The notes: generated by a model not told the origin, from the sequence alone. A stretch of DNA of 64,000 nucleotides from Leucoraja erinacea (GCF_028641065.1 NC_073407.1:186001-250000); one strand, 5' to 3'. Positions 24,941 through 61,703 are shown, numbered from the stretch's first letter. A program made the numbers and translations.

Positions 24941-24959
24941 ACCAACTTGCATTGTATCC

Positions 24960-25535
24960 TTGCATATAAATCTTTCTAACTTCTACAGGTGCACAATAGA
25001 GAGCATGCTGACCGGTTGCATCGTGGCTTGGTTCGGCAACTTGAACGCCCTGGAGAGAAAAAGACTACAAAAAGTAGTAAACACTGCCCAGTCCATCATC
25101 GGCCCTGACCTCCGTCCCATCGAGGCGATCTATCGCAGTCGCTGCCTCAAAAAGGCTGGCAGCATCATCATGGACTACACACTCCTGGCCACACACTCAT
25201 CTCTCTGCTAACTTAATGTAGAAGGTACAGGAGCCTGAAGACTGCAACGACCAGGTTGAGTAAAAGCTACTTCCCCACAGCCATCAGGTTACTAAACATG
25301 GCTCGGACAAAACTCTGAACATTAATAGCCCATTATCTGTTATTTGCACGTAATCAGTTTATTCATTCATGCGTGTATGTATTTATATAATGGTATATGA
25401 ACACACTGATTTGTTCTGTAGTCATGCCTACTATGTTCAGTTGTGCTGAAGCAAAGCACAAATTTCATGGTCCTTTCAGGGACACATGACAATAAACTTT
25501 CTTGAATCTTGAATCGTGAATCTTGAATCTGAACG
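24960..25535 (+). mobile_element. Rex1-like LINE 3' fragment containing the empty DIRS target site (AATAG 25324-25328)
   Basis: NFYRCTIESMLTGCIVAWFGN...RLQKVVNTAQSIIG; tail GACAATAAA(CTTGAAT)n. Confidence 0.8.
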
Positions 25536-25949
25536 TGCCTTGGAAAGTTGTGCATGTTCATGCTTCTTAGGACATTTAACAACTCCTCTGACTGTAATGT
25601 AAATTGCCCTCAAGACATTGCCTTTGATTTCTCTAACTTCTCTCATCCTCATATCTTTCTCAGCAGTACAAACAAAGGAGAAATGTTCATGGACAGAACC
25701 CAGCTCCTGCGACTTCACATATAGGTGATCGATTTAGTTTCAGAGAGTCCTTTGATTTCGATTATGTACTATCAGCAATATTACATTTGGACCTGAGACC
25801 AGGCCGGCTCACATTTCGTTTTGCAGGACCATGAAAGGACTTAACAAGGGATCGGAGTACAATTGCCTCTTATTGAACGACGTAACCAACTCTCTCGATG
25901 AAGATGTATTTCCATGTGATTGTGCACCGGGTATGTTCACGTACCACAT

Positions 25950-32409: not shown

Positions 32410-34805
32410 CAGAGATGCTGCCTGTCCTGCTAAATTACTCCAGCATTTTGTGTCTACCTTCGATTTAGAACAGCATCTGCAGTTCTTTCCTACACGTGTT
32501 AGCGATAGATGCAGTTCCAACTAGATAGGCTGCTGGCATGTTGCTACCTTTGCAACGGTGACAGAGGATAATGATTCGGAAGTTTGCAGTGTCCAGATCA
32601 GACCGCATCTGAATACAGTTGAGAATCCCATATGGAAGATATTGGATTATTCTATTGGAGGTAGTACAAATGTTCACTTAGATAACCCTTGGGCAAAAGA
32701 GATGACATACAAATACACGTTAAATAGATTGGGGCAAGACCCACTGTAGTTTATAAAAATCGACAGCTGATTGGGGATTGAAGGGGCAGGTGCTGAGATG
32801 AGGAGCCCTCCACGTGGTTTATACAGACTGGGGGGACATAATTTCTTAATAAGGGATAACACAATGAAGATGAAGAGGCGGGACGAATGCTCTCTGATGG
32901 AGAGAAAGAGAGTCCAGTCAAACTCCCACTGCCATCAGTGTGATATCAAAAGGGGTTAAGAAAAATCAGCGGTAAATTACATTTCACGTCTGTTTCTGCG
33001 TTTATTTCCACATAGCATTCTACGGGATGTAGTATAATTACACACCTTACAGCAAATCCACAAATAAAAGCATTATGGATGCAATAAATACTGAGAGGAG
33101 ACGTTCTATAATAAAGTATATTTAGAAGCAGGATTGGCCGTAGCACCTGTGAGCTCAACTCATCAAACAAATCATGGCTGTTTGACCTGTTTCCTCCAAG
33201 AATCATTGTGTCCCACTCGTTCTAAGAGCCATATCTATCCCCGTGTTGGATGCATTTAACGCTATGCTATTTGATGTAATTTCCCTTCCAACACGATTCA
33301 TTCAGTATTCACCGGCTTGAGTCTATGTCGTCGAAACGGCAGCCTGGAAATGTTTACCGGAGTGATGCATCAATAACGTCTCGCGCGAACCGGGCGAGTC
33401 ATGTGTTGCTGGGCAGGGTTGGGAGTCTTAGGGATGCAGTCACTATCATGGGTTCGCTCCCTGACAGCGAGCTGGAACATCTGCACATGTCTGCACGGAA
33501 CCCACAGGTGTTTCCGTTCAGTTGCTTTGTGAGCTCCTTCCCCGTGGCGGTCCATGAAATGTTGTACACCGGCCCTAGCATTCTACTTATTAATGAGATT
33601 TCACAAGGGATATATTACGCATTGTCTGTTGTTTTAAGGGATGGTAAAATGTTCTTTTATATCAATTGATGTTCTGTCCACTACTCTCCTGCATATTCTT
33701 AGGCCGCGGATCTATAAATTACTGCCAGCGATGGACAGGAGCTTGCAAAGTAACTGAAAGGAAGCACGTGTGGTTTACTTACAGTTAAAATGTATGGCTT
33801 GTTTCCAGTCCGCTGCTCAGCGATGATGAATGAGATCCAACAAGACAAAAGTCTTCTCAGCAACAGTTCTGTCAAAGCACCAACAAACGTTGCAATTGGC
33901 TACATGTTAGATCATTAGATTTTCGTTTTAATGGTCTGCATTCTGCACGAGTGGACATAGTGCTGTTGGACTCGATTGAGATTTGATGGAAACACCGTTA
34001 CAATGTGTATCAAATACGCGATTATTCTAGAGAGAATATATATCTCACACAAACACGCCAGACAATTCATACATTGGAATTGATTAAAGGGCGCACACCA
34101 CACTCAACGTAGGCTTGGCGTGTCCCATATCCCCCACCCCACGTGGTTTGGGTCAATAGAGTCACCTTCATCGTATGAAGGACACTGAGAGAATGCAAGT
34201 ACTTTTGTGTAAATTCCACCGAAGGCAATGAGGACATGGGTTCAATACAATATGTATTTCCCGTTACATCTCCACACTCAATGCAGTTAGCCCGATCAAT
34301 ACACAGGTCATGTTTTTATTGCAAGGCATATTCCGCAGGCTTCACCAACTGCACAATGCCTCATATGTAGGCCAAAAGATTGTTTTCATCCATCGTTGTC
34401 ATGTTCCATATGGGTCAAGTTATTGAAGAGGGACATGACAAATAGGATGTAAGGAGGTTTTAAAGAGAGGGGTGCCGAGTCTATCCCGCGTCGGCATTCA
34501 GTATGGTCCCATTCATTATGTCTAGTGAATAATTTTGCCCATAGTTTTGTTTTCCTACAATAACATAAGAACATCTGAAACATTAACTATTGATGCGGAA
34601 TCATTTGAAGATTTGCATCTCACTCTCTCGGATGCTATTCTGCGCTGCTGGGGACAATGTGCTTCTCTATCTGTATTTTAATGTTCTAATCTGAGACCTC
34701 TGGTTCAGCGATTATTTGCATCAATACCTCCATCGCGTCCGGCTGCGATCACAGAACATATAAACACATCATCTACGTTTCTGATTGATTTCTCTCAACT
34801 GTTCA

Positions 34806-36938
34806 ATAGGCAATAAACAATAGGTGCAGGAGGAGGCCATTTGGCCCTTCGAGTCAGCACTGCCATTCAATGTGATCATGGCTGATCATCCCCCATCTGT
34901 ACCCCGTTCCTGCCTTCTCCCCATATCCCCTGACTCCGCTATTTTTAAGTGCCCTATCTAGCTCTCTCTTGAAAACACCCAGATAACCTGTCCCCACCGC
35001 CCTCTGATGCAGTGAATTCCACAGACTCGCCACTCTCTGTGAGAAAAAGTGTTTTCTCGTCTCCATTCTAAATGGCTTACTCCTTATTCTTCAACTGTGG
35101 CCTCTGGCCCTGGACTCCCCCAACATCGGGAACATGTTTCCTGCCTCTAGTGTGTCCAAGCCCCTAACAATCGTATATGGAGGAACAACACCTCGTATTC
35201 CGCTTGGGGTGTCTTCATCCTGGGTGCATGAACATTGAACTATCCCAATTTTGTTAGCCCTTGCTGTCTCCTCCCCTTCCTATCTCTCCCTCTGCCCTCG
35301 GGCTCCTCCTCCTCCTTTTTCCTTTCTTCTCCCCGCCCCCCCCCTCCCCCACCCCTCCCACATCAGTCTGAAGAAGGGTTTAGGCCCGAAACGTTGCCTA
35401 TTTCCTTCGCTCCATAGATGCTGCTGCACCCGCTGAGTTTCTCCAGCATTTTTGTGTACCTTCGATTTTCCAGCATCTGCAGTTCCTTCTTAAACAATCT
35501 TATATGTTTCAATGAGATTCCCTCTCATCCTTCTAAACTCCAGAATGTACAAGTCCAACAGCTCCATTCTCTCAGCATATGACGGTCTCACCATCCAGGG
35601 AATTAACCTTGCGAACCTACGCTGCACTTGCTCAATAGCAAGAATGTCCTACCTCAAATTAGGGGACCAAAACTGCACACAATACTTCAGGTATGGTCTC
35701 ACTAGGGTTCTGCACAATGGCAGAAGGATCTCTTTGCTCCTATATTCGATGCATCTTGTTATAAAGGCCAACATGCCATTCGCTTTCTTCACTGCCTGCT
35801 GTACCAGCATGCTTACTTTCATAGACTGATGTACAAGGACCCCCAGATCCTGTTGTACTTCCCCTTTTCCCAAATTGACGCCATTTAGATAGTAATCTGC
35901 CTTCCTGTTTTTTCTACCAAAGTGGATAGCCTCTCATTTATCCGGATTAAACTTCATCTGCCATGCATCTGCTCACTACTCCAACCCGTCCAAGTCACCC
36001 TGCATTCTCATAGTTTCCTCCTCACAGTTCACATGTCCACCCAGCTTTGTGTCATCTGCACATGTGCCAATGTTACTTTTAATCCGTTCAACCAAATCAT
36101 TGATGTATATTGTAAATAGCTGCAGTGCCAGCACGAAGCCTTGCGGTATCCCACTAGTCACTGCCTGCCATTCTGAAGGGACCCGTTTATCCCTACTTTT
36201 TGTTTCCTGAATGCCAACCACTTCTCTATCCCTGTCAGCACTCTACCCCCAATACCATGTGCCCTAATTTTGCCCAATAATCTCCTATGTGGGACCTTAT
36301 CAAATGCTTTCTGAAAGTCCAGGTACATTATATCCACTGGCACCCCCTTGTCCATTTTCCTAGTTACATCTTCAAAGAATTCCAGAAGATTTGTCAAACA
36401 TGATTTCCCCTTCGTAAATCCATGCTGACTCAGACCGATCCTGTTACTGCTATCCAAATGTGCGGCTATCTCATTTTTATATTGACCCCAGCATCTTCCC
36501 CACCACCGATGTCAGGCTAACTGGTCTATAATTCCCCATTTTCTCCCTCCCACCTTTCTTAAAAAATGGGATAACATTAGCTACCCTCCAATCCACAGGA
36601 ACTGATCCTGAGTCTATAGAACATTGGAAAAGTATCACCAATGAATCCACGATTTCTAGAGCCACTTCCTTAAGTACCCTGGGATGCAGACCATCAGGCC
36701 CTGGGGATTTATCAGCCTTGAGTCCCATCAGTCTATCCAACACCATTTCCTGCCTAATGTAGATTTCAGTCAGTTCCTCTGTCACCCCAGATCCTCTGGC
36801 CACTACTATATCAGGAAGATTGTTTGTGTCCTCCTTAGTGAAGACTTATCCAAAGTACCTGTTCAACTCATCTGACATTCCCTTGTTCCCCATAATAAAT
36901 TCACCTTTTTCAGATTTCAAGGGACCAACTTTGGTCTT
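34806..36938 (-). mobile_element. CR1 LINE fragment specific to unit B (TSD TGTTCA) with a nested PLE end (~35170-35495)
   Basis: [36 protein letters not shown]; TGTTCA at 34800-34805 and 36939-36944; empty site at ~19857-19862. Confidence 0.9.
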
Positions 36939-37678
36939 TGTTCATCGGGACATCTTACGAATGTCAGCTAATGATGAAAAATGACCCGAAATTTCATGGA
37001 CAGTAACATCAGGTGTTTGGTGAAAAGAGATAAACGTATGCATAACCTGCATTGGAATAGAATGTGTTAGTACTGGATGTTCCATAGGCAAATTCAATGG
37101 CACAGTTCTGAACAGGATACTATTTTACTTAATATCCATCTGCAGGCAGCCTTAACATTCCTAAACTTACCAAGTGCAGTCTTGGCCATACGAGAGCCTA
37201 ACAAGCCCAATAATTCTTATTTAACATCACAGAGTGGTGGGGAACGGGCCGCTTGGGGATATACAGGACGGAAATACGTCCTTCGGCTCGTCTCCGCCAT
37301 ATTGACCATAATGTCCCATTGAGAACAATTCCATGTGCTCGCGATTGGTCCATATCCCTCCAAACATTACCTCGCCATTGCCCTGTCTTTTAAATGTCAC
37401 TTGTATATCCCCTCTGGTCCGCTCCGTTTACAACAGCGTGTGTGGGAAAATGTCCCACTTCATTCTCCCCTCATCTTAAATGTATGCATCACAGTCCTCG
37501 ATTCTCCGACGTATAAAAAGACTGAATTGACCGTTTCATATCCCCTCATATCCCCTGTATAGACCTCTTTAAAATTACCCCTCAGCCGCTTGCGGAACTA
37601 TCCAAACTCTCCCGAGAGCTTAGACACTCGTCGCTGGTAACATCTTTGTAAGTTCCCTTTTAGTTTCTTTCAGTTCAA

Positions 37679-38540
37679 GTCAAGTCAAGTTTATTCGTCA
37701 CATACACATACGAGATGTGAAGTGAAATGAAAAGTGGCAATGCTCGCGGACTTTTGTGCAAAAAGACAAACAAACAAACAACCAAACAAACTATAAACAC
37801 AATCACATATTCTTTTACATATTACATATTGTGGGCGGAAGGAAAAACGTTCAGTAAAGTTAGTCCCTGGTGATATAGGAGTTTACAGTCCGAATAGCCT
37901 CTGGGAAGAAACTCCTTCTCAACCTTTCCGTTCTCACAGCATGGCAACGGAGGCGTTTGCCTGACCGTAGCAGCTGGAACAGTCTGTTGCTGGGGTGGAA
38001 GGGGTCTCCTATGATTTTATTGGCTCTGGAGTTGCACCTCCTGATGTATAGTTCCTGCAGGGGGTCGAGTGAAGTTCCCATAGTGCGTTCGGCTGAACGC
38101 ACTACTCTCTGCAGAGCCTTCTTGTCCTCGGCAGAGCAATTCCCAAACCAGATGGTAATATTTCCGGACAAGATGCTTTCCACAGCCGCTGAGTAGAAGC
38201 ACTGGAGGATCCTCAGAGACACTCTGAATGTCCACAATTGCCTGAGGTGGTAAAGGCGCTGCCTTGCCTTACTCATGAGTGCTGCGGCGTGCGATGTCCA
38301 TGTCATATCCTCAGAGATGTGGACTCCCGGATATTTGAAACAGCTGACCCTATCCACAGTATCCCCATTTATCCTCAATGGAGTGTACGTCCTCGGATGA
38401 TGTGCCCTCCTAATGTCCATGATCAGCTCCTTAGTTTTTTTGATGTTCAAGAGGAGGCTGTTGTCCTGACACCAGAATGCTAAATCAGCCACCTTCTCCC
38501 CGTAGGCCTTCTCATCATTGTCTGAGATCAGGCCCACCAC
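37679..38540 (-). mobile_element. Rex1-like LINE 3' fragment, TSD CAGTTCAA
   Basis: ORF 37860..38540 reads WCQDNSLLLNIKKTKEL...KARQRLYHLRQL...SFFPEAIR; (CTTGA)n tail; TSD at 37671-37678 and 38541-38548. Confidence 0.9.
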
Positions 38541-41038
38541 CAGTTCAATGGTATTCTTCTTATAAAACCTTGACCAAACGCAAAGTCAGTATTCCAAGGT
38601 ACACAAAAATGCTGGAGAAACTCAGCGGTTGCAGCAGCAGCTATGGAGCGAAGGGAATAGGCAACGTTTCAGACCAAAACCCTTCTTCAAACCATAGATG
38701 CAGTCTCAAAATCAGCCTCAAAATCGTCCTGTACAACTTTACTTCCCGACATTAATTAATTTGTTGACTCATTAAGTCCCAACACCTTTCTCACCTTCCT
38801 ATCTACCTCCGATGATTCTTTCAGGGAAGTATGTACCGAAATCCTACATCCTTCTGCTCTCCAGCAATCACCAGGACGTTACTGTTCATTGTAAATGCAA
38901 TTGCCTTGAACTCCTAAAATGGAACAGCTTGTACCCTTCTGAATTAAATGCAATTCGTCATTTCTCGGACCATTTGCCCAACTGATCCAGATCTCGCTGT
39001 GATGCCTGATCTCCCTGTTGACGATGCCAACTCTGTAATATAATTTGCAAACATATTAATTTCCAAACATTTTTAAATGCATTGTACATTCTCAATGAAA
39101 TCATTGATGTAGATGACAAACAGCAATGGCTCTCATCGAATACCGAGGTACAACATTAATTACAGTTATCCAATCCGGACAGCCAGCTTGTGCCATCCTT
39201 TGTTTACTATCAGGAAGCCAATTACAAAGCTCTGTCCAAAACTCATGCAATCTAATCTTCTAGAACCAGCAGTACGGAATCCTATCAAAGAGCTAGTTCA
39301 AGTCCATACATATACATGTAGGAACTGCGAATGCTGGTTTATACCGAGGATAGAAACAAAATTTTGGAGTAACTCAACGGGTCAGGCAGCACATTTGGAT
39401 TAAACTGATGAGTGATGTTTTGGGTCTGAACTTTTTTTCTGAATGAAAGTAAAGGTGGGATGTGGGCGACGGGGAGATAAACTGAGGGCGAGAAACGGCC
39501 AGAATAAATCAGGACCGGCAACGAGTTACCTCAGGAGGTTGGACCCCATAATGGCACAATGTTGGTTGGGGAAGGTGTGACATACATGGATACGAACAGT
39601 AGAACTGGTAAGACAACTAGGGTAGGGATGGTGGCAGGGGAGAGAATGGATGGCAGGAATTTAGTTTGGTTTATGTTTAGATTAAACCTACAGCTTGGAA
39701 ACAGGCCACGGCCCATCGAGTCCACGCTGACCAGCGATCATCCGTACACTAGCACCATCCTACACACTAGGAACAATTTACAATTTGCAGAAGCTAATGA
39801 AACCTACAGTCCCTACAAAAACATGTTATATCTTCAATAACCCGATATAATTTGTGAGATACGATCTCCCTCTGCAAAAAATGAATACATGTTGCCAACA
39901 ACTACTCAACCTCCAAATGCATTCATATTTTAGAATCCTCATCAGTAACTTCCTACTAGATATGTTAGGCTCACTGGTCTTGTGTTTCTATGTCTTACTG
40001 TGCAGGCTTCGTAAATAGAGGCAGAGCATTAGCCACCGTCGTCTTCCGACATCTCACATTTATTTAACAATGATTGATATACCTCAGCTAGGGCTCCAAC
40101 TGAAGACTAGCTACAGACACCACTTTACAAACCAGGAGATCTACCGTGAAACTGCAACAAAACCTCTCAGCCAGGACATAAAGGTACGCAGGATGAAATT
40201 TGCAGCACATGTACTCAGAATGTCACCAGAACGTGCACCGAAAGTAGCAATGACATGGTAAACTGACGGAACAAGGAAAAGAGGCCGACCAAAACTCACA
40301 TGGAGGCGAACATTCCAGAAGGATTTGGAAGCCCGGGACGCAAACCTATCGAGGGTGGAAGACATCGCACATAACCGAACAGAATGGCGAAAGCTTGCTG
40401 CCCAATGCACTCACCAGTGTGGGAGGAACTATGTCTACCAACTTGCATTGTATCCTTGCATATACATCTCTCTAACTTCTCCAGGTGCACAGTAGAGAGC
40501 ATGCTGGCCGGTTGCATCGTGGCTTGGTTTGGCAACTGTAGCGCCCTGGAGAGGAAAATACTACAAAAATTAAACACTGCCCAGTCCATCATCGGCTCTG
40601 ACCCCCGTCCCATCGAGGGGATCTATCGCAGTCGCTGCCTCAAAAAGGCTGGCAGCATCATCAAGGATTTACATCCTCCTGGCCACACACCCATCTCTCT
40701 GCTAACTTAAGGTAGGAGGTACAGGAGCCTGAAGACTGCAATGACCAGGTTCAGGAAAAGTTACTTCCCCACAGCCATTAGGCTATTAATCTTGGCTCAG
40801 ACAACAATTTGAACATTAATAGTAAGATTAAACGAGAACTTACCAGTTTGAAGTTTGATCTGTATTTTATGAGGAGGAACGTTGAGGGAATACATGAAGA
40901 AGCCCGCCCACAGCGCTAGCGTGTCATCCTTCAAAGCAGCGGTGTGAGGTCACAGATACCCAATATTGACCTAAAATAGCAAGATTATTAAAGAGATACC
41001 AGCTTAAGATATGACCCTATGAGGGTGGGAGCGGAGGG

Positions 41039-41151
41039 CATGTATTCCCTCAACGTTCCTCCTCATAAAATACAGATCAAACTTCAAACTGGTAAGTTCT
41101 CGTTTAATCTTACTATTTTACTTCGGAGTCACGTGAGGGACTCCATGAAGA
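41039..41151 (+). repeat. DIRS internal complementary region (ICR)
   Basis: 41039-41117 is the exact reverse complement of 40818-40896, and 41113-41151 is the exact reverse complement of 45890-45928. The two overlap at CTATT. Confidence 0.95.
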
Positions 41152-41335
41152 TTTCAAAGCTCTGTGACCTCACGCCCTGGAAAAACCGAGTCCATGCTTC
41201 ACAACTGCCTTGGTAGTTTGGGAGAAATTGTTAATGATTTTTTAAAACCAGAAAAACATTGATACCAATTGTTTAACGTAACAATAAATAATATTTATTA
41301 ATTCAAATCATAAACCCTTGTTCATCAGGGATAAA

Positions 41336-42307
41336 TTATAATACGGAACTTAAAAGTTTCCCCGAAAACGTTTCTATACCACTAAGTGGTTTATTATAGA
41401 ATTTTTGAAATGTCCTCTCCGACGACCATCCTGCAGTCCTGAGGATTTGGTCCATGGAGACCTCAAGGCGTTTTGCTGCGGATGTAGCTGCCGCCCTGGT
41501 GGAGTGAGATTTAAATATATTAGTGTCCACTCCTGCCTTCCTTAACCCATATTTAATCCACCGTGAAATAGTCTGAGTAGACACCCTCTGGTATGGTTTC
41601 CTATAGCTGATTAACAGCCCCATTTCTTTGCCTCTAATGGCCTTAGTCCGTTCAATATACAACAAAATATGTTTCATAATACAGAGACGTTCGTCCTCCG
41701 GGTAAGCCAGAAATTCAATGACCTGTCCTGCTGATCCTGGTCTATTTTGTTTAATTAAATCCTGTATTACAAAGACCAAACGTCCTGCCGCCATAGAGAA
41801 GCTATCCAGTCTCAACTTTCGCAGTGACTGGACCCTCTGTGCTGTGACCAATGCCATCAGCATAACCATTTTTCTAGTTAACGTGTCCAGAGTCAATGCT
41901 GTGGCCGGCGACCAACTTCTTAGCATGTTGAGGACCACACTTGCATCCCAGATCTGGGTATATCTTGGTTTTGGTGGTCTGGTGTTAAAAATACCTCTTA
42001 ACAGTTTAATTACCAGCGGATGAGACCCCACTGAAAGACTATCTGTTCCTTGCCACAAAAAGGTTGATAAAGCACTTCTGGCACTATTAACAGTCCTATA
42101 ACTAAGTCCTTCGTAGTGCAGACTGGTGAGGAACTCTAGCACTGCTGGCACATTCTTATCTCTGTGGTCCAGATGATTATAATGGCAGTAATTAATCCAT
42201 TTCCTAATGTGACTTAAATATTGCTTTTGTGTTGACCTTCTTTGCGCTGCTGTGATCATATCCACAGTTCTACTGGATAGCCCCATGTCTCGTAGAGGTT
42301 CCTTCAA
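41336..42307 (-). CDS. DIRS tyrosine recombinase (open ORF, 323 aa)
   Basis: TAQRVQSL (catalytic Arg), HSTRAAATS (HxxR), AGWSSERTFQKFY (W...Y nucleophile). The start codon is uncertain. Confidence 0.92.
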   Translation of the reverse strand: MKEPLRDMGLSSRTVDMITAAQRRSTQKQYLSHIRKWINYCHYNHLDHRDKNVPAVLEFLTSLHYEGLSYRTVNSARSALSTFLWQGTDSLSVGSHPLVIKLLRGIFNTRPPKPRYTQIWDASVVLNMLRSWSPATALTLDTLTRKMVMLMALVTAQRVQSLRKLRLDSFSMAAGRLVFVIQDLIKQNRPGSAGQVIEFLAYPEDERLCIMKHILLYIERTKAIRGKEMGLLISYRKPYQRVSTQTISRWIKYGLRKAGVDTNIFKSHSTRAAATSAAKRLEVSMDQILRTAGWSSERTFQKFYNKPLSGIETFSGKLLSSVL

Positions 42308-44398
42308 AGTCTACAAGCCAACAAAGCAATATTTTTATAACATGGATGGCTATCGTGAGTTACCGGATGCACCAGCAACTTAGGACTATGTTTAAAGTGC
42401 ATACATGGTTCTAAAACCATATCCTGTATCACCGAGAACCATGGTTGTGTAGGCCAATCAGGTACTATGAGAATCCCAGATGCCGAATCCTGTTGAATTT
42501 TCCTTAGTACCCGATTGATGAGGCAGAAAGGAGGAAATGCATATATGAACCATTTCCCCCAGTGCAGTGAAAATGCATCTGTAGCTTCTGCCCCAGGATC
42601 TGGTTCCCATGATACATACCTTGGTAACTGGTGATTTAACCTGGATGCAAAAAGATCAATATCCATACTTCCATACTTTTCTGTGATTTCCCCAAAGACA
42701 TATTCAACATCCATTCTGTATTTTCATTAAATTTTCGTGACCTGGCGTCCGCCACTGAATTTAGTATCCCTGGTAGATACGTAGCCGATAACCAAATATT
42801 CCTTTGGATACACCATTGCCAAATTAAATTTGCCAATTTATCACAAGATATTGATATATTTCCACCCATATGATTTATATATGCCACCACGTGGTATTGT
42901 CTATCTGCAATCTAACATGCTGCTGATTCATACCTGAGCAAAAAGACTTAAGCCCATGAAATGCACTTAACATTTCTAAATAATTTATACCCTTAGTATT
43001 TAGTAGGTTAGCTTCTTGAATATTCCATCTCCCTCCACAGCTCGAGATGGTATCCGTTGCACCCCAACCAATTGCACTGGCATCTGTTTGTAATACCACA
43101 GACGGGTTGTCAATAACTATTGGGTTGGAGCCATACTTAACATTGTGTTCCCACCATTGTAATTCTTTTATAGCTTCAATTGTTAGCTCCATTGGCCTAT
43201 CAAAATGGCCTCTATTAATTTTGAGTGCTCTTATTTTGTCTCTCTGTAAATTTTGGTAATGTAATGGTCCAAATTGTATGGCAGGAAATGTAGCCACAAT
43301 TTTTCCAATCATTCTGGCTACCCGTCTAATGGATGGTTTAACGGTATTAATAAGCTCTGTGCAATCCTTTTGTATTTCTGTGGCTTTCCCTAGTGGTAAA
43401 GTCACTAACATATCAATTGAGTTAATGGTGAACCCCAGGTAATCCATATTAGTTGATGGTGTTAATTTAGACTTAATTGGATGGATAATGAACCCCAGGT
43501 GTTCAAACAATTGCTTAGTGGCCACCACTGCCTGACATGCCAATTCATAAGTTTTCCCCACTATAAGAATATCATCCAAATATGCCATTACTCTATGATT
43601 TTGTTGTCGCAATAATGCCAAAGCTGGTTTTAGAATTTTTGTAAATAACCTGGGCGCTGACGTAAGCCCATTTGGCAAAGCCTTATACTGCCAAAGCTGT
43701 CCCATCCAATTAAATTTCAAAAACCTCCTGTGTCTATTTCTAATGGGTATTGTATAGTAAGCATCCTTAAGATCAATACTTGCCATAAAATAGCCTTTAG
43801 ACACTAAGTCTATAGCAGTGCTAAACGTATCCATTTTAAAATGAACATATTGCACAAATTTGTTAAGTGTTGACAAATCAATAATAACACGACAACCCCC
43901 ATCTTTCTTATTCCTAATAAATATGTTAGAGACAAACTCCTGTTTTTCAGGTTTGGTTTGTTCAATTACCCCTTGATTGAATAATCTTTTTATTTCTATG
44001 TGAGCTTTTGCTTGTTCTAATTTAGTAAGTATATATTTTCTGTCCGGTGTATGTTGTACTGGAGGGTTATGTTTGTGTAAGAACTCTATCAGATATCCCT
44101 TAATACTGCTAAGGATATATCTGTCCATAGTTATATTGCACCATGCTTCCAAATGAAGTTGCAATGCCCCTCCAACTTCCGTGCTCCCTACAACTTTTGG
44201 AGCCGCAGATTCACCTACCTCCATGGTTATCGGTGGTAATTTAGTTATTTCCTTATTTTTATTCGTGGATGTGGAGGCCCTTGAAGTTGAGGTTGCGATG
44301 GCTGCTGATGTACTGGCTTCCGCATTTTCCACAGCGGACGTCCCGGGCCAAACCCTAAAAAAGGACGCTGCTGCTGCTGGGGGCTCCTCTCTCTCCAA
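42304..44398 (-). pseudogene. DIRS pol: RT, RNase H and Dam-like methyltransferase domain, broken by two frameshifts (~42890, ~42705)
   Basis: SIDLKDAYY, LPNGLTSAPR, AYLDDIL (RT); QTDASAIGWG, INYLEM, IDNTT/VAYIN (RNase H); DLFAS...DAF...YAFPPF...PDWPTQPWF (MT). Likely start MEVG near 44224. Confidence 0.9.
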
Positions 44399-45747
44399 TT
44401 CCTGGTGGTATTATAGAGCCCACCCTTTTTTGGACGCCCATAGGGTTGATATCTCTTTCCTAGATACCCTTTGGCTGCCCTTATCAGCCCCAAAGTCCTG
44501 GCCTCCTCATCCAACTCTTTGACCTGTTTAGACAAGTCTCCTCCAAATAGTAGGGTTTGGGGTTTTATATCCCTTTGCTTGCACAAAACAGCAAATTTAG
44601 GGTCTAGAACTGGCTGAATAGCTCCCTTTCTTAAATTGTTTAATTCCAATTGTACATTACACAATAATGCTAATGCATCCTTTTGATCACTATTCATCTC
44701 CACTTTCTCGAACGAACGGGCCAAAGCTGTAATCCCCGCTGTGAGACTTTTGAGGGCATTTTGGACCTTAAGATCCTGATTCCTAATACCCCCCCCCACA
44801 TGCTTCCAAATACACCTATTTACACTGGCTACATGCAGCGCAGTACAATTCCCTGGTGGTAAGTGCCTTGCCAATACTTCAGCCATCGTATTAGCCTGCA
44901 ACTGGTGTGTGGACATGTACTCGATACTTGCAGCCATCCTGTCCTCGAGGTTCTTGCCGGTCTGCTCCTGCTGGAAGTACTGTCCCACCATGTCCAGTAA
45001 GTTGTGTTCCTTCCCTTCAATGGGAGAAGACGGTTCCACCTCTTGCTCAGACTCTGAGCTGGTCAGACATTCGATATCCTCCTCAGAGGAGTCTGATATA
45101 TCTTGCAGCCCTTTAAGGGAACCTGCTGTGGGGCTTACATTATGCCCACTGTGGCTATCCTCCCTCTCACGGAGCCTGCCACTATGGATAATTTCATCCA
45201 GCAGCCGCTCCAGCCGACTTTCGCGCTCTCGGGCGCTAGTCGATCGCGGGTGCTTATCGGGCCGCTCCAGCCGACTTCCGTGCACTCGGGCACTAGTCGC
45301 TCGCGGTTCCCGCAGCCGGTCCCCATGCCTCCCTGCACTGGTCGCTCCCGGCCGCCCAATATTCTCCTGCCGCCCTTCCCGGCCCCGGTACTCACGAGCA
45401 CCTGTCGCCGGCGGCTGGATATCCATCCATTGGTAGTGGCTTTCCAGCTCCGTAAGGCTGGCCGCTCCTGGCTGCTCCTGGCTGCTCCTTTCCCGCAGCT
45501 GCTCGTCAGTTCTCCTGAACTGGTAAGTACTGTCTCCACCACCAGAATTAAGGTGATGGGACTTTTGTTTTGCCTTCCCGCCCGGCCGCGAAATCGATTT
45601 TGCCGGCGCGGGGTTCAAGTCGGGCACAGCTGGTTCCTCCATCGGTAACACCTGTGGCATCGGCTGCTGCTGCTGCAGGTCCCCGGCTCCTTCCCGACTT
45701 ACTTGCTGCTCCTTTCTCACCGACTTCCTCCGAGGTGCTCTGTCCAT
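44245..45747 (-). CDS. DIRS gag-like ORF1 (500 aa, open)
   Basis: Long ORF upstream of and overlapping pol. PGNC...VN..IW, DALALL, LLFGGDL motifs are also present in the second DIRS copy. Confidence 0.85.
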   Translation of the reverse strand: MDRAPRRKSVRKEQQVSREGAGDLQQQQPMPQVLPMEEPAVPDLNPAPAKSISRPGGKAKQKSHHLNSGGGDSTYQFRRTDEQLRERSSQEQPGAASLTELESHYQWMDIQPPATGAREYRGREGRQENIGRPGATSAGRHGDRLREPRATSARVHGSRLERPDKHPRSTSARERESRLERLLDEIIHSGRLREREDSHSGHNVSPTAGSLKGLQDISDSSEEDIECLTSSESEQEVEPSSPIEGKEHNLLDMVGQYFQQEQTGKNLEDRMAASIEYMSTHQLQANTMAEVLARHLPPGNCTALHVASVNRCIWKHVGGGIRNQDLKVQNALKSLTAGITALARSFEKVEMNSDQKDALALLCNVQLELNNLRKGAIQPVLDPKFAVLCKQRDIKPQTLLFGGDLSKQVKELDEEARTLGLIRAAKGYLGKRYQPYGRPKKGGLYNTTRNWRERSPQQQQRPFLGFGPGRPLWKMRKPVHQQPSQPQLQGPPHPRIKIRK

Positions 45748-46599
45748 TCCTACAACAAAGTTAAAAATGCAGAGTCACTTACCTGCCGTTCGTCGGCTTT
45801 TTACTCTCCCATTCACGGGGACGTCCTCCCCAGGTGTGACACGTCCATGCGTTGTTTGCGATATGACACGCTAGCGCTGTGGGCGGGCTTCTTCATGGAG
45901 TCCCTCACGTGACTCCGAAGTAAAATAGCCCATTATCTGTTATTTGCACTTTATCAGTTTATTTATTCATATATGTATATATTTATATAATGGTATTTGG
46001 ACACACTGATCTGTTCTGTAGTCATGCCTACCATGTTCTGTTGTGCTGAAGAAAAGCACAAATTTCATTGTCCTATCAGGGACACATGACAATAAACTCT
46101 CTTGAATCTTGAATCGTGAATCTTGAATCTGAACGTGCCTTGGAATGTTGTGCATATTCATGCTTCTTAGGGCATTTAACACCTCCTCTGAATGTAATAT
46201 ATACTGACTGCCCTCAAGACATTGCCATTGATTTCCCTAACTTCTCTCATCTTCATATCCTTCTTTGCAGTTCAAACAAAGGAGAAATGTTCATGGACAG
46301 AACCCACCTCCTTTTTAAACTGAAGTTTAATCCGGATAAATGAGCGGCTATCCACTTTGGTAGCACAAACAGGAATGCAGATTATTATCTGAATGGTGTC
46401 CGGTTATGAAAAGGTGAAGTACAACGAGACCTGGGTGTCCTTGTACATCAGTCACTGAAAGTAAGCATGCAGGTACAACAGGTAGTGAAGAAAGCAAATG
46501 GCATGTTGGCCTTCATAACGAGAGGAGTTGAGTATAGGAGCAAAGATGTCCTTCTGCAGTTATACAGGGCCCTGGTGATACTACACCTGCCGTATTGTG

Positions 46600-47192
46600 A
46601 GTGAGGCAAGGCAGCGCCTTTACCACCTCAGGCAATTGAGGAAATTCAGAGTGTCTCCGAGGATCCTCCAGTGCTTCTACGCAGCGGCGGTGGAAAGCAT
46701 CTTGTCCGGGAACATTACCATCTGGTTCGGGAATTGCTCTGCCAAGGACAAGAAGGCTCTGCAGAGAGTAGTGCGCTCGGCCGAACGCACTATGGGAACT
46801 TCACTCACCCCCCTGCAGGAACTATACAACAGGAGGTGCAACTCCAGAGCAAACAAAATCATGAGAGACCTCTTCCACCCCTGCAACAGACTGTTCCAGC
46901 CGCTACGGTCAGGCAAACGCCTCCGTTGCCATGCAGTGAGAACGGAGAGGTTGAGAAGGAGTTTCTTCCCAGAGGCAATTCGGACTGTAAACGCCTTTCT
47001 CACCAGGGACTAACTGTACAGAACGTTTTTCTTTCTATTATTTATTATGTAAAATAATATGTGTGTTATGTTTGTGTTTATAATTTGTTTGGTTGTTTTG
47101 TTGTTCCGCGAGCATTGCCACTTTCATTTCACTGCGCATCTCGTATGTGTATGTGACAAATAAACTTGACTTGACTTGACTTGACTTGACTT
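46600..47192 (+). mobile_element. Rex1-like LINE 3' fragment, TSD GTATTGTG, inserted in a CR1 of unit B
   Basis: ARQRLYHLRQL...SFFPEAIR; (CTTGA)n tail; TSD at 46592-46599 and 47193-47200; empty site at ~26371. Confidence 0.92.
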
Positions 47193-48144
47193 GTATTGTG
47201 TGCAGTTTTGGTCTCCTAATTTGAGGAAGGCCATTCTTACTATTGAGGGAGTGCAGCATAGGTTCACGAGGTTAACCCGGAATGGCGGGACTATCATATG
47301 ATGAAAGAATGGTTTCATTGGAATTTAGAAGGATGAGAGGGTATCTTATAAAAATATAAACGCGGGAAACGTGTTTTCGATGTTGGGGGAGTCCAGAACA
47401 AGGGACCACAGTTTAAGAATAAGGAGTAAGCCATTTAGAACTGAGAGGAGGAAAACCTTTTTCACACAGAAAGTTGTGAACTTGTGAAATTCTCTGCCTC
47501 AGAAGGCAGTGGAGGCTGATTCAGTGGATGAATTCAAAAGAGAGTTCAATAGAGCTCTTAGGTCTAGCGGAAACAAGCGGTATGGGGAGAAGGCAGGAAC
47601 GGGGTACTGATTGTGGATGATCAGCCAAGATCACAGTGAATGGCGGTGCTGGCTCAAAGGGCCAAATGACCTAATCCTACACCAATTGTTTATGTATCTA
47701 TGTATCTAATGCGATTTAATATTAACAAATGTCCATGGAACAATGGTTGCATGAGCTGTTTTACAACAAAATGAGAAATAAGAGCAGGAGAAGGACATGT
47801 TCGTGCTTATTCCCCTCTTCACATTGAAAGTGCATATCGTGCACTTTCAATTCCTTATCCTTCTTTCTTCAATTATTAACTTATGCCACTGCTCCCAACA
47901 ACAACAGCTAACCACTTTGTGGATATATTTAATGATTTCATATTAATTACCATTCCTATTCCGACTCAGTTCATCCAGTCTGTCGTGGCTTTGAGTCCCC
48001 AATGGTTTGACTGCAGTCTGACATTGTTAATCGGAGCTTCACATTAGGTCGCATCGTGATGTGCGTTGAGGTGACGAGAAATGTGTTGATGATTGATTTG
48101 TTTCTGGGCAGATTTGTGTGTCGTTGTGACAGAATCATAATATT

Positions 48145-48181
<37 letters not shown>

Positions 48182-48529
48182 GCGGTGGTTTGGAGTTAGC
48201 ACATTCATATCCACACACAAAATATATTGCTGCTTCCTTTGAATTTCACCGTGATCTCATAAGTTGAGACAGTTCATAAGTGCTCGGAGCAGAATTATCA
48301 ATTCGAGCCATCAAGCCATCAAATCTGCTCCGCTAGTCAATAATGGTTGTTCTATCTTCCCTTTTAACATAATTCTCCTGCCTTCTCCCCATAAGCCCTA
48401 ACACCCGCACTAGTCAAAAAAGTATGTAAATCTGCCTTCTTTTCAGTGGCATATTGTAAAATATTGAAATCGGGCCACATGATGCTACCAGTGAAATTAC
48501 ACAAGTAATATTTTCCTCCTGGACTACTG

Positions 48530-49454: not shown

Positions 49455-52400
49455 CTTTCTTAGCAGGTGGGGGACCAGAATTCTGGCAGGCAGGTTTGCC
49501 ACTGCTACACGGGTGGTTTTAAACTGAATAAGGGGGGTGGGGTGCCAAATAGGATAGTTGACGATGGAGTTAAAGGGAAAGGATTTCTTAAATGTGTGAG
49601 CGTAGACAGAGGGGTGTAAAATGAGGGTAGAAGCAATAGGTAGCAAGGTGAAAAGTAAAAGTGGCAGGCAGCCAAATCCAGGGCAAAAATCAAAAAGAGC
49701 GACTTTTCACCATAATTGTATAAGGGGTAAGAGTGTTGTAAAAACAAGCCTGAAGGCTTTGTTTCTCAATGCAAGGAGCATTCGTAATAAGGTGGATGAG
49801 GTGCATGTGCAGATAGCTATTAATGACTATGATATAGTTGGGATCACGGAGACATGGCTCCAGGGTGACCAAGGCTGGGAGTTGAACATCCAGGGATATT
49901 CAATATTCAGGAGGGATAGACAGAAAGGAAAAGGAGGCGGGGTAGCGTTGCTGGTTAGAGAGGAGATTAACACAATAGAAAGGAAGGACATCAGCTTGGA
50001 GGATGTGGAATCGATATGGGTAGAGCTGCAAAACACTGAGGGGCCGAAAACGCTAGTGGGAGTTGTGTACAGGCCACCTAACAGTAGTAGTGGAGTTGGG
50101 GATGGCATCAAACAGGAAATTAGAAATGCGTGCAACAAAGTTAAAACAGTTATAATGGGTAACTTCAATCTACATGTAGATTGGGTGAATCAAATTGGCA
50201 AGGATGCTGAGGAAGAGGATTTCTTGGTATGTATGCGGGATAGTTTTCTAAACCAACATGTAGAGGAACATGTAGAGGAACCAACGAGAGAGCAGGCTAT
50301 TCTAGACTAGGTATTGAATTTCCTTTATTGAATTTCCTTTATTGTCATTCAGACCTTTCAGTCTGAACGAAATTTATTGAGTAATGAGGAAGGGATAGTT
50401 AGCAGTCTTGTTGTGCATGGCCCCTTGGGCAAGAGTGACCATAATATGGTTGAGTTCTTCATTAGGATGGAGAGTGACATTGTTAATTCAGAAACAAGGG
50501 TCCAGAACTTAAAGAAAGGTAACTTTGACAGTTTGAGACGTGAATTGGCCAGGATAGACTGGCAATCGATTCTTAAAGGGTTGACGGTGGATATGCAATG
50601 GAAGGCATTTAAAGACTGCATGGATGAGCTACAACAATTATTCATCCCAGTTTGGCAAAAGAATAAATCAGGGAAGGTAGTGCATCCGTGGATAACAAGG
50701 GAAATCAGGGATAGTATCAAAACAAAAGATGAAGCATACAAATTAGCCAGAAAAAGCAGCCTACCAAAGGACTGGGAGAAATTCAGAGTCCAGCAGAGGA
50801 GGACAAGGGGCTTTATTAGGAAAGGGAAAATAGATTATGAAAGAAAACTGGCAGGGAACATAAAAACTGACTGCAAAAGTTTTTATAGATATGTGAAGAG
50901 AAAAATGTAGGTCGCTTGAAGTCAGAAACAGGTGAATTGATCATGGGTACAAGGACATGGCAGACCAATTGAATAATTACTTTGGGTTCTGTCTTCACTA
51001 AGGAAGACATAAATAATCTGCCGGAAATAGCAGGGGACCGGGGGTCAAATGAGATGGAGGAACTGAGTGAAATCCAGGTTAGCCGGGAAGTGGTGTTAGG
51101 TAAATTGAATGGATTATAGCCGATAAATCCCCAGGGCCAGATAGGCTGCATCCCAGAGTACTTAAGGAAGTACCCCCAGAAATAGTGGATGCATTAGTGA
51201 TAATTTAAAAAAACTCTTTAGATTCTGGAGTTGTGGATTGGAGGGTAGCGAATGTAACCCCACTTTTTAAAAAGGGAGGGAGAGAGAAAGCAGGGAATTA
51301 CAGACCAGTTAGTCTAACATCGGTAGTGGGGAAACTGTTAGAATCAGTTATTAAAGATGGGATAGCAGCACATTTGGAAAGTGGTGAAACTATTGGACAA
51401 AGTCAGCGTGGATTTATGAAAGGTAAATTATGTCTGACGAATCTTATAGAATTTTTCGAGGATGTAACTAGTAGCGTGGTAGGGAGAACCAGTGGATGTG
51501 TTATATCTGGACTTTCAGAAGGCTTTCAACAAGGTCCCACATAAGAGATTAGCATACAAACTTAAAGCACACGGTATTGGGGGTTCAGTATTAATGTGGA
51601 TAGAGAACTGGCTGGCAGACAGGAAGCAAAGTGTAGGAGTAAATGGGTCCTTTTCACAATGGCAGGCAGTGACTAGTGGGGTACCGCAAGGCTCAGTGCT
51701 GGGACCCCAGCTATTTACAATATATATTAATGATTTGGACGAGGGAATTGAATGCAACATGTCCATGTTTGCGGATGAAACGACGCTAGGGGCAGTGTTA
51801 ACTGTGAGGAGGATGCTAGGAGGCTGCAAGGTGACTTGGATAGGCTGGGTGAGTGGGAAAATGCATGGTAGATGCAGTATAATCTGGATAAATGTGAGGT
51901 TATCCACTTTGGTGAAAAAAACAGGAAAGTAGACTATTATCTGAATGGTGGCCGATTAGGAAAGGGGGGAGATGCAACGAGACCTGGGTGTCATGGTATA
52001 CGAGTCATTGAAAGTAGTCATGCAGGTGCAGCAGGCAGTGAAGAAAGTGAATGGTATGTTAGCATTCTTAGTAAAAGGATTTAAGTATAGGAGCAGGGAG
52101 GTTCTACTGCAGTTGTACAGGGTCTTGGTGAGACCACACCTGGAGTATTGCATACAGTTTTGGTCTTCTAATCTGAGGAAAGACATTCTTGCCATAGAGG
52201 GAGTGCAGAGAAGGTTCACCAGACTGATTCCTGGGATGTCAGGACTTTCATATGAAGAAAGACTGGATAGACTTGGCTTGTTCTTGTTAGAATTTAGAAA
52301 ATTGAGGGGGGATCTTATAGAAACTTACAAAATTCTTAAGGGGTTGGACAGGCTATATGCAGGAAGAGTGTTCCCGATGTTGGGGAAGTCCAGAACAAGG

Positions 52401-52703
52401 GGTCATTGTTTAAGGATAAGGGGGAAATCTTTTAGGACCGCGATGAGGAAAACATTTTTCACACAGAGAGTGGTGAATCTGTGGAATTCTCTGCCACAGA
52501 AGGCAGTTGAGGTCAGTTCATTGGCTATATTTAAGAGGGAGTTAGATGTGGCCCTTGTGGCTAAAGGGATCAGGGGGTATGGAGAGAAGGCAGGTACAGG
52601 ATACTGAGTTGGATGATCAGCCATGATCATATTGAATGGCCGTGCAGGCTAGAAGGGCTGAATGGCCTACTCCTGCACCTATTTTCTATGTTTCTATGTT
52701 TCT
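49455..52703 (+). mobile_element. CR1 LINE with near-complete but disrupted ORF2
   Basis: LNARSIRNK, GITETW, GGGVAL, YRPP, SDHN, RT motifs, CR1 tail (TTTCTATG)n; several frameshifts. Confidence 0.93.
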
Positions 52704-52704
52704 A

Positions 52705-57505: not shown

Positions 57506-57509
57506 TAAA

Positions 57510-60500
57510 TTATATATTTTCAGAATTTAAAATCCTCTCTGCAAATAATACAGGTTTAACAATTGGCTTATTATAGAACGTTTGGAAAGTTCTTTCCGTG
57601 GACCACCCCGCTGTTGCCAGGATATGGTCCAATGGCACGTCCATATTCTTCGCCGCTGATATAGGTGCTGCCCTGGTGGAGTGAGATGTGTAAATGTCAG
57701 TATCCACCCCAGCAGCTCCCAATATCTGTCTGAGCCATCTAGAGATGGTTTGTACTGACACCCGACCATGTGGCTTTTTGTAGCTGACCCATAGTGCCTT
57801 TTCTCTCCCTCGGGGTTCTTTGGTTGTGTTGCGATATTGTAGCAAATGTGTCATGACACATAAACGGGGGTCAGGTCGGTACGCCCAGAATTCCATAATT
57901 AGTCCTGAAGTTCCATAATTAGACCTGAAGTCTGCTCTGTTTTACCAGCTCCCAGATAGTAAAAGTGACTTGGTCAGCTGATATGACCATGTTGTCCAGT
58001 CTGAGAAGGTGTAAGGACTGGACTATTTGGGCTGAGACTAAAGCCATCAGCATTACCATTTTCAGGGTGAGCTGTTCCACAGTGAGGGATCTGGCTGGTG
58101 ACCATCCCCTTTGATATGACAGGACGACACTGACGTGGCCGATTAGGAAAGGGGGAGATGCAACGAGACCTGGGTGTCATGGTACACCAGTCATTAAAAG
58201 TAGGCATACAGGTGCAGCAGGCAGTGAAGAAGGCGAATGGTATGTTAGCATTCATAGCAAAAGGATTTGAGTATAGGAGCAGGGAGGTTCTACTGCAGTT
58301 GTACAGGGTCTTGGTGAGACCACACCTGGAGTATTGCGTACAGTTTTGGTCTCCTAATCTGAGGAAAGACATTCATGCCATAGAGGGAGTACAGAGAAGG
58401 TTCACCAGACTGATTCCTGGGATGTCAGGACTTTCATATGAAGAAAGACTGGATAGACTCGGTTTGTACTCGCTAGAATTTAGAAGATTGAGGGGGGATA
58501 GAAACATAGAAACATAGAAATTAGGTGCAGGAGTAGGCCATTCGGCCCTTCGAGCCTGCACCGCCATTCAATATGATCATGGCTGATCATCAACTCAGTA
58601 TCCCGTACCTGCCTTCTCTCCATACCCTCTGATCCCCTTGGCCACAAGGGCCACATCTAACTCCCTCTTAAATATAGCCAATGAACTGGCCTCAACTACC
58701 CTCTGTGGCAGAGAGTTCCAGAGATTCACCACTCTCTCTGTGTGAAAATCTTATAGAAAGTTATAAAATTCTTAAGGGGTTGGACAGGCTAGATGCAGGA
58801 AGATTGTTACTGACACACCATTGTCAGATTATGTTGACCAGATTATCACATGATATCAATTTTATCCGCCCATATGATTAATATAGGCCACCACTGTGGT
58901 ATTGTCAATTTGTAGGCGGACATGCAAATGGTGCATAGTTGAACAGTAAGCTTTTAGCCCATAAAATGCACCCAACATTTCCAATAGTTCATACCCAGTG
59001 TCTGTAGTAGTGATGATTCTTGTATGTTCCATCTACCACCCGTACTAGATATAGTGTTAGGTGCTCCCCAGCCTTGAGCACTAGAATCCGTTTGTATCGT
59101 GAATGTTGGGTTATTGATAACGATGGGGCTGGAACTATGCCAAATGTTCACTTTCTACCATTGTAACTCTGATATTGCTTTAGCTGGTAATTTCATGGTT
59201 CGGTCAAAATGACCTGCATGTTGTTTTAGCGCTTGCGCCTTTGCTCTTTGTAAGTTTTGGTAATGCAAAGGTCCAAGCTGGGTAGCTGGTAATGCTGCTA
59301 CTAATTTCCCAATTACTCTTGCCACTTGTCGAATGGTTGGTTGATTGGGAATCATTAATTTGTTGCAGGCTTGTGCTTTTTCTTTTGGCAACGTTACAGA
59401 CATGTGTACTGAGTTAATTGTGAATCCCGTGATAGTCCATAGTTGTGGATGGCACCAACTTAGATTTATCTGGATGTATGACAAATCCCAGAGTTTCAAA
59501 TAAATGTTTGGTAGCTAATACTGCTGATTTAGCTAATTCCTAGGTTTTGCCCATTATCAAAATATCATCAAGATATGCCATGATAATATGATTTTGTTTT
59601 CTTAATATTGCCAGGGCCGGTTTTAATATCTTGGTAAATAGTCTTGGGGCTGATGTTAGCCCATTAGGCAACGCTTTACACTGCCATTGTTGCCCCATCT
59701 AGTTAAACTTAAGGTATCTACGATGATCGTTATGAATGGGTACTGAATAGTATGCATCTTTTAGATCGATGCATGCCATGAAGTATTCTCTGGAAATCAA
59801 TTGTTTGGCACTAACAAATGTTTCCATTTTGAAATGTATATACTTGACAAAAGTATTCAATGTCGTTAAGTCAATGCTGATGCGACATCAACCATCTTTT
59901 TTGGTTTTAGTAAAGATATTTGATACAAATTCCAAAGGGTCATGTTCCGATTTCTATATGATTCCCTTTGTATGTAGTCTCACCAGTTCTGCCTGTCCCT
60001 CGCATTTTTCTTTTTGTGAGAGGGTAAACTCCCTGTCGGGTGTATGCTGAACTGGTGGCGTACTTTTTTAAACAAATTCAATTTTGTATCCCTGAATACT
60101 TTGTAGTATATAATTGTCGAGTGTGATAGCCCTCCATACTTCCAAAAACAGGTGTAACCTCCCCCCTGTTAGTAAAGGCCCTGCACCTTTTATGTTCTGG
60201 AAGGAACCAGACCCACCTACCTCCATTGTTACCAGTAGAATATTCATTTCATGGGTCTCCAGCTCTTCATCAGTCGAGGTGTCATTGTGTGGGGGTGGTG
60301 CATCTTCCATGGGGTCCGTTCTGGGCCCTGTCCTAAAAACGACTTCCGGGGATGATATGAGGGCCCCATGCTTTCACCAGTACCATGGTGTAGATGCCTG
60401 CTGGTGGATGCGTAAGGGTACTGCCGTCTGGGTTGCGTGGTCTTGCTCGTTCCAGGACCTGCCCTCATGAGTGCGAGTGCTTTGGATTCCTCATCCAGAT

Positions 60501-61703
60501 CTTTTACCTGCTTTGGCAGGTCTTTACCAAATAGCAGGAATTGTGGTTGTGAGGTCGGCGTTTTGCACAACCCTGCAAATTTGGGGTTGAGGGCAGGTCT
60601 TATGGCTTCTTTCCAGAGGTTATTGATTTCATACTGTGTGTTACACAACAGAGGCAGTGTGTCTTGTTGGTTGTTAGTCATTCCGACACCATCCACGGAA
60701 CGAGCGTATGAGGTTATGGCTGACGTCAGGAGCTTCAGTTTTTTTTGCAGTTTTAGTTCTTGGGTTCGGATACCCAGCCCAATGTACCCCCAGATTTGGC
60801 TAATGATGGCCGGTACTTGAGCGATATACAATTCTCCGGTGACGTGTATAATTCCATCGCCTCATTCACTACCTGTTCTTGGAGTGGGTTAAAGGACAGG
60901 TGGTCAATGTTAGCCGCCAGTTTAGGCTGCAACGGCTGTCCCACTCGCGGTGTTACAGCATAGCGGTTTACCACTTCCAGCAGCTCTTCCTGTTCCTGCA
61001 CCCCCAGCATACTGCTGTTGTCTTCAGCCAACGACCCCTGTTCTTGACCAGCCCAGCCCTGGTCGCCAACGCTCCCCTCTGCTGAGGGAGATGCGATGGC
61101 CAGTGCTGGGTACTGCACTGTGGCGGGTGTGCTTGCATTCCATGGCGGGCTGGCCCCATCTCCCGGAGCAAGTCCCGCTGGAGCATTTGCTCTATTAGCC
61201 GCTCCATGCAGGCCAAATGGCCATCTCTGCCTCTCTCGGGCGGTGAGTCTTCCATGCCGGACTCATCGGAGTAAACCGGTTAGACCGACTTCTGTTTAGC
61301 CTTGCCTCCAATCCGCTGTGGTAGTTCGAGCTGTGCAGCTTGCGGTGTTGAGCTCAGCTGCACAGATATTTTGTTGGTGACTGTGGACTGCAGCGAGTGC
61401 GGTCCAGGTGCTGCCGGTCGCCCCCCACTGCTCGAACCCTCCCGGGCCATCACAGTCAGACGAGGTGCGACCTTCATCGTTTGTCTGCCCTTGTTCATGT
61501 TCTCTATGAAGACAAATCACAACAAGGGTTTTTTCAAACACGACCTCAGAATAAGTTTTACTTACCTGGAGGTTCCATTTTAAACTCTGTTGCGGGAGAG
61601 CTCGTTCTCCCGCCCGTCGCTGTTACACTGTGTGAGACGCTATGTCACGCATGCGTGCTGGCGTGGTCTTCACGTAGTCACTCACGTGACTCCGAAGTAA
61701 AAT
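57510..61703 (-). mobile_element. Second, degraded DIRS1-type element (different subfamily) with internal deletion and CR1 insertion (58136-58808)
   Basis: YR C-terminus (HSTRAA...AGWSTERTFQTFY), RNase H (TDSSAQGWG, IDNTTVVAYIN), RT, gag (LLFGKDL). Terminus TCACGTGACTCCGAAGTAAAAT is identical to the first DIRS. Confidence 0.9.

Follow-up and report, generated by a model that had tools for sequence, protein, structure and literature searches.

DIRS1-like retrotransposons, as described in the excerpts of PMC3266345 (Piednoel et al. 2011, Table 3) and PMC7192593 (Malicki et al. 2020) used here, carry gag, a reverse transcriptase, RNase H and methyltransferase region, a tyrosine recombinase and inverted termini, and possess an internal complementary region (ICR) overlapping on a 3-bp junction. 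The core is ATT/AAT in most of the tabulated elements, no target duplication is made, and insertion into older DIRS is reported. The same excerpts treat the triplet as the unit of identity and the circle as duplex. For DIRS-1 of Dictyostelium, the excerpted text of PMC7192593 describes antisense single-stranded cDNA, mostly linear, which can complete transposition, and an ICR that is essential; polymerase chain reaction across the junction was negative and the duplex circle is a model. The specificity of DIRS recombinases is, according to the same excerpt, experimentally unstudied. In this study we analyzed a DIRS family of the skate Leucoraja erinacea, represented by a copy at 40820-45925 of a 64,000-nucleotide stretch (GCF_028641065.1 NC_073407.1:186001-250000; the window hereafter). 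Its anatomy does not differ from that of the described elements; however, the core of the skate family is very probably split as AA^T (the caret marks the join), and a target preference extends from -8 to +9.

Two systems outside the DIRS group offer the closest comparison. The integron integrase IntI1 cuts at AA^C and needs identity at that one base only, the other two tolerating change (PMC2811028, in excerpt). Genomic targets of integrons read GWT (W, A or T), and their uniform junctions were read as a single cut (bioRxiv 10.1101/2022.09.11.507474, in excerpt). The IntI1 reaction is resolved by replication, likewise that of the CTX phage, which proceeds from a stem mimicking duplex DNA (PMC4792948, in excerpt).

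Ends, core and empty site

The junction features are given below, with positions counted from the first base of the window.

40820..45925, minus strand: DIRS1-like retrotransposon, 5,106 bp element-derived if the join is AA^T; ends placed from 39 sister copies, join from mismatch asymmetry
40818..40820, plus strand: AAT core at the 3' junction; AA probably host, T probably element
45924..45926, plus strand: AAT core at the 5' junction; AA probably element, T probably host; AG at 45927-45928 is host DNA
40818..40927: 3' terminus (extension and inverted repeat), complementary to the ICR over 40818-40896 and to the 5' repeat over 40863-40927 (88%)
45863..45926: 5' inverted terminal repeat, complementary to the ICR over 45890-45926
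41039..41151: ICR, mirroring the end-to-end junction without mismatch, with its ATT core at 41115-41117
25324..25326, plus strand: empty target AAT in duplicate unit A, within the tail of a dispersed LINE-like (long interspersed nuclear element) repeat

Reverse-complemented, the ICR matches the 3' terminus at every base (40818-40896, 79/79) and likewise the 5' terminus (45890-45928, 39/39), and thus spells the end-to-end junction, as a preliminary description of this DNA had stated; paired with the 3' terminus it gives a hairpin of 79 bp (z -19). AATAG is present at both flanks (40818-40822 and 45924-45928), and in a collinear duplicate the same flanks are joined through a single AATAG, CATT-AATAG-CCCATTATC (25324-25328). 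Junction, target and product can therefore be seen together in the window, which bears out the same description. Run X4 contigs also contain the empty form (loose end at 45924). The duplication is in tandem, with unit A at 17684-27604 and unit B at 32619-48529 sharing long blocks mostly 88-95% identical; each unit has later insertions of its own. Eight matches among the loci collected span the insertion site in the repeat tail; of the four other copies most similar to it, two have AATAG and two have AATAA.

The 5-bp repeat had been taken as encoded by the element, with a core of up to 5 bp. The genome searched comprises 2.19 Gb; the 40 top-ranking matches of the 3' end were taken, 39 of which were obtained whole. 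We call the element's 3' junction left and its 5' junction right, on the plus strand of the window, which is the antisense strand. The left count includes the window copy and excludes one nested copy; for the right count, five copies had no usable end, L035 and L047 were completed from further loci, and three additional ends were added. The left end is AATAG in 36/39 copies and the right end AAT in 37/39. AG is found at the 3' junction of all 39 copies, whereas bases 4-5 of the right ends take 13 different values, with AG in the window copy only (39 ends). A second sample, anchored on ICR matches, has AG after the right core in 1/50. AG is thus element-derived at the 3' junction and host-derived at the 5' junction. 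The proposed survey of genomic flanks recovers a common AAT while the two bases beyond it vary.

An element-encoded AATAG that must match the target holds at the window site, and AG follows seven of 19 AAC-type right ends, where a longer match may help a mismatched site. This reading is nevertheless extremely improbable. A requirement for five bases is ruled out by the pooled right ends, with AG after the core in 2/88 (one being the window copy) against a background of 4.5% after AAT, and by 6,435 right ends genome-wide with a base other than A after the core; exact matches to the ICR centre number 6,360. A at +1 is moreover depleted (5/88 vs 21 expected), and the second DIRS of the window continues with TT. 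As an observation apart, right AAC ends (L100-L129, L200-L219) are followed by AG in 7/19 and by A in 12/19, while AAT ends are followed by A in 8/108; either CpG decay or a rescue of mismatched docking by the extra identity may be the cause.

Empty repeat copies give the same length. A total of 125 elements had both ends, 39 of them had empty-site matches, and 35 of the 39 have a gap of exactly 3 nt as the most frequent one; among these 35, AAT is the most frequent empty triplet in 25. The core is therefore the published 3-bp ATT, only part of it element-derived at each end, the extra AG at the window site is chance, and integration proceeds without target duplication. Both the 3-bp rule and the element as such are of a known, ordinary kind.

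Position of the join within the core

Deviations from AAT were counted genome-wide as exact pattern matches and compared between left and right by Fisher tests. Core base 1 deviates in 81/3,339 left ends vs 33/6,435 right ends (odds ratio 4.8, p 8e-16) and core base 2 in 111/3,339 vs 45/6,435 (odds ratio 4.9, p 3e-21). Base 3 behaves oppositely, with 38/3,339 on the left vs 140/6,435 on the right (odds ratio 0.52, p 2e-4). Bases 1-2 thus deviate about five times oftener at the 3' junction and base 3 about twice as often at the 5' junction, a reversal that a simple age difference between the left and right samples does not explain.

Empty repeat copies indicate where the deviating bases come from. 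For right AAC ends the target reads AAC in five of six informative cases, while left AAC ends have T at target base 3 in 5/5 and so reflect later mutation. Left GAT, ATT or ACT ends match the target in 3/5; L006 is ambiguous. Three independent insertions (L304, L313, L315) fall into one LINE site that reads AAC in 35/43 empty copies, and in all of them base 3 is T at the left end and C at the right; the three lie on two chromosomes, belong to different subfamilies (3' ends 73-79% alike) and sit in diverged LINE copies. Taken together, the mismatch asymmetry, the empty-site cases and the AAC-site insertions indicate that bases 1-2 are host-derived at the left end, as is base 3 at the right end, which places the join, with high probability given these counts, at AA^T on the antisense strand. 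Identity is then probably needed at one base only, mismatches at core bases 1-2 being tolerated and staying on the host side. The AAC site struck three times at the same base is in itself a hotspot of mismatched insertion.

Three candidate sources of deviating ends were rejected. Sibling families with an AAC ICR do not supply the AAC ends, as the ICR is AAT in 13/13 loci where a 3' end was found (7/20 had none in the stretch). AAA right ends were set aside as evidence on the join, being mostly A-run slippage, and two apparent AAG 3' ends were dropped as LINE look-alikes.

The textbook arrangement would place staggered cuts at the edges of a 3-bp overlap and require ATT identity, with the asymmetries arising from mutation, slippage and sampling. 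It accommodates the roughly 93-97% of ends that are AAT at all three bases, and different subfamilies do stand behind the left and right patterns. It predicts, however, either like deviation at both ends or a triplet that is one-sided as a whole, whereas bases 1-2 and base 3 show opposite asymmetry and the three AAC-site insertions show split cores; tyrosine recombinases, in addition, normally have spacers of 6-8 bp (PMC2811028, in excerpt). We consider the arrangement unlikely.

A join at AA^T is not free of difficulties. The base-3 effect is small, 2.2% vs 1.1%, and diluted by slippage and transitions: AAA makes up 30 of the first 100 right deviants listed, mostly A-run slippage, and perhaps half of the AAC right ends arose by later T-to-C mutation. 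Few empty-site cases are informative (6, 5 and 5), with three of the six from one LINE site, and three cases contradict the split rule, L313 (left), L186 (right AAG) and L105 (right AAC). The commonest empty triplet differs from AAT in 10 of the 35 three-base gaps, which makes repeat copies only proxies for the real target. The left and right counts were also taken with different arm patterns and sample different subfamilies.

Junction arms, products and a possible route of integration

In the ICR the junction appears as GTAAAA-TAGTAAGA-TTAAAC, with an 8-bp spacer between two inverted arms that end in GTWWAA. The 5' side of the target resembles one arm, with W at -2 in 117/126, a purine at -7 in 95/126 and T at -8 in 69/126 (36 expected), and C at -1 is depleted (3/126 vs 31 expected). 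Across 108 right flanks, TT starts at +7 in 27 (8 expected) and at +8 in 23 (9 expected), about where the second arm of the circle starts. Target preference thus lies mostly 5' of the join (T-8, R-7, W-2, not C-1; R, purine), plus TT at +7 to +9, and the 8-bp spacer is not common to circle and target. The same 34-bp junction centre is retained by about 6,400 elements, including subfamilies with recombinases only 50% identical.

A single type of product was found. The loci were picked by end, ICR and mismatch patterns and are not a random sample; permuted copies would nevertheless have matched the ICR pattern. Left ends, located through the inner repeat, retain the element spacer at seven or eight of its eight bases in 175/175. 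Of 181 right-arm motifs followed by other DNA, three resemble the spacer and two of these are deleted ICRs, leaving at most one case (L219) of 179. Two exchanges over an unmatched 8-bp spacer should leave heteroduplex and predict both reciprocal outcomes. On a duplex circle, moreover, the recombinase would meet the 111-bp junction sequence a second time in the ICR, which could be the opening point in about half of the insertions; no ICR-opened end was found among 182 ends followed by other DNA. The six ICR-side candidates examined were rejected as four internal deletions, one split by a TA-inserting transposon (8/8 other copies follow TA) and one diverged ICR. By a motif check, 141 of 146 internal junction-like motifs have an ICR-side motif, and two are head-to-tail joins of different DIRS. 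At L068/L280 (G000:C4 near 26,606,933) and at position 1182 of L279, a DIRS is joined, exactly at AAT, to the 5' end of a DIRS from a different subfamily; these joins rebuild a circle junction in the chromosome and fit the reported insertion of DIRS into DIRS.

A possible route, to which we assign an even chance from the sequence patterns, is that landing on AAT, in the window copy within one unit of the tandem duplication, and joining at AA^T occur by exchange of the antisense strand only, from a single-stranded circle whose junction is paired to the ICR. Reverse transcription would yield antisense single-stranded DNA, and the ICR would serve as the support for restoring and joining its ends. 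The junction would then pair with the ICR as a 111-bp duplex in which two arms flank the 8-bp spacer. The recombinase would cut after AA on the junction strand and on the target, docking on about one base of identity, and the branched product would be completed through replication or repair. No second exchange would take place; it would be abortive, since the chromosome would become linked to the ICR strand. The strand that would be cut at AA^T is the antisense strand, the strand seen as single-stranded cDNA in Dictyostelium, which we count in favor of single-strand exchange. The preliminary description had proposed recombinase crossover between a short junction sequence and an identical target; recombination without target duplication is upheld, while crossover over a stretch of identity appears too simple.

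The same AA^T cut could be made on a double-stranded circle, the one-strand appearance coming from resolution by replication or from a repair of the unmatched 8-bp spacer that always follows the antisense strand, while bound protein or distant sequence would keep the recombinase from the ICR. A duplex circle is what the published model supposes (PMC3266345 and PMC7192593, in excerpt), the junction has two arms with a weak second arm in targets, and duplex-duplex reactions of IntI1 can be resolved by either path (PMC4792948, in excerpt). An extra device would be needed, however, for both the lack of ICR-opened ends and the uniform 3' spacers, and duplex circles were not recovered in Dictyostelium (PMC7192593, in excerpt). 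We hold this alternative to be less probable than exchange from a single-stranded circle, though a substantial one.

Several observations tell against single-strand exchange itself. All support is drawn from finished insertions. The weak second arm in targets (TT at +7) would also serve a two-exchange reaction, and a double-stranded circle could avoid its own ICR through distant sequence or bound protein. The AlphaFold model of the recombinase (predicted local distance difference test score, pLDDT, 53) is too poor for structural comparison.

By analogy, DIRS may integrate like integron cassettes or the CTX phage, the ICR serving both as end template and as partner strand of a site folded from single-stranded cDNA, with one-strand exchange at AA^N on one base of identity; we put this at slightly under an even chance. 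Reactions of IntI1 (attC x attI or attG) cut after AA in AAN, as is very probable for the skate family, and share with it tolerance at AA, unmatched spacers and uniform junctions (PMC2811028, PMC4792948 and bioRxiv 10.1101/2022.09.11.507474, in excerpt). Both have short degenerate genomic targets, GWT in integrons and AWT in the skate DIRS (bioRxiv 10.1101/2022.09.11.507474, in excerpt). In contrast to integrons, the skate DIRS are eukaryotic retroelements and the stem of ICR and junction is perfectly paired, without extrahelical bases. We therefore do not assign the skate elements to the integrons: the ICR matches both ends without mismatch, and the nearest solved sequences to the recombinase are weak Cre matches (E 0.11 or worse). 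The likeness to the CTX phage, recombined by XerC/D, is that a folded single strand with a stem mimicking duplex DNA would be the substrate; the phage, however, uses host recombinases at one fixed site, while DIRS use their own enzyme at thousands of sites (PMC4792948, in excerpt).

In the open literature searched we found neither a published DIRS join point nor a proposal of single-strand exchange; the review of Poulter and Butler (2015) and the papers of Goodwin and Poulter lay outside the search and may hold part of this. The arm and spacer layout and the lack of ICR-opened copies were likewise not found in the open literature searched, the main Poulter and Goodwin reviews being outside it.

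Coding parts, neighbouring elements and significance

The coding parts of the window copy are as follows.

41336..42310, minus strand: tyrosine recombinase frame, open, 324 aa (amino acids) stop to stop; PF00589 28.5 bits vs cut-off 27.1
42304..42723, minus strand: pol, methyltransferase-like portion, not in frame in the window copy; Dam PF05869 E 1.8e-4, under the cut-off
42875..44410, minus strand: pol, reverse transcriptase / RNase H portion, cut off by a frameshift; reverse transcriptase PF00078 E 2.8e-20
44245..45774, minus strand: gag-like first frame, 509 aa, assigned from position

With a reverse transcriptase pol bearing a methyltransferase-like part, a separate recombinase frame, termini that are inverted but not identical and an ICR able to pair with both outer ends, the element classifies as an ordinary DIRS1-like retrotransposon on its domains, inverted termini, ICR and 3-bp junction. 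The recombinase frame, whose openness had been correctly described, carries R159, K187, H269, R272, W295 and Y305 in an alignment of 26; we take these to be the catalytic residues. RNase H, which we assign by motifs, was unmatched by Pfam in the pol of the window copy, and the Pfam search of the 509-aa gag-like frame gave no match.

The window copy had been called complete, which holds for its structure only: pol has two frameshifts, near 42889 and within 42670-42730, and the copy does not qualify as autonomous. The two frameshifts are missing from 35/39 and 37/38 aligned sister copies, respectively. Sister copies have an open recombinase frame in 32/39 and a pol frame of at least 700 aa in 17/39. 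One of them (L059:1111-4188, minus strand) has pol and recombinase fused in a single 1,026-aa frame, while the other sisters keep the frames separate. Two RNA runs give a depth near or below 1-3 over the coding part, without start or end signal, and are uninformative on expression. A circle junction is indistinguishable from the ICR in contigs from the public runs.

A second DIRS lies further along the window.

57522..61703, minus strand: second, diverged DIRS, interrupted and without 3' terminus; 5' junction AAT (61701-61703), then TT

This element had been said to share AAT at its end with the first; the AAT is indeed shared, and TT rather than AG follows. Its broken 3' end is adjoined by a small element resembling a TA-inserting DNA transposon (57080-57550, internal palindrome at 57290-57420), whose end sequence also splits an ICR in L206. 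A large inverted pair of CR1-like LINE fragments (51461-52704 and 55640-56878, 92%) occupies 51461-56878.

With a predicted cut bond and strand, a layout of arms and spacer, open recombinase frames and a target logo, the skate DIRS family makes a defined oligonucleotide assay possible. If the proposed route is true, the ATT/GTT 'circular junction' seen across the group would consist of the end of a recombinase arm and a docking base, and single-strand site-specific integration would be a widespread pathway in eukaryotes.

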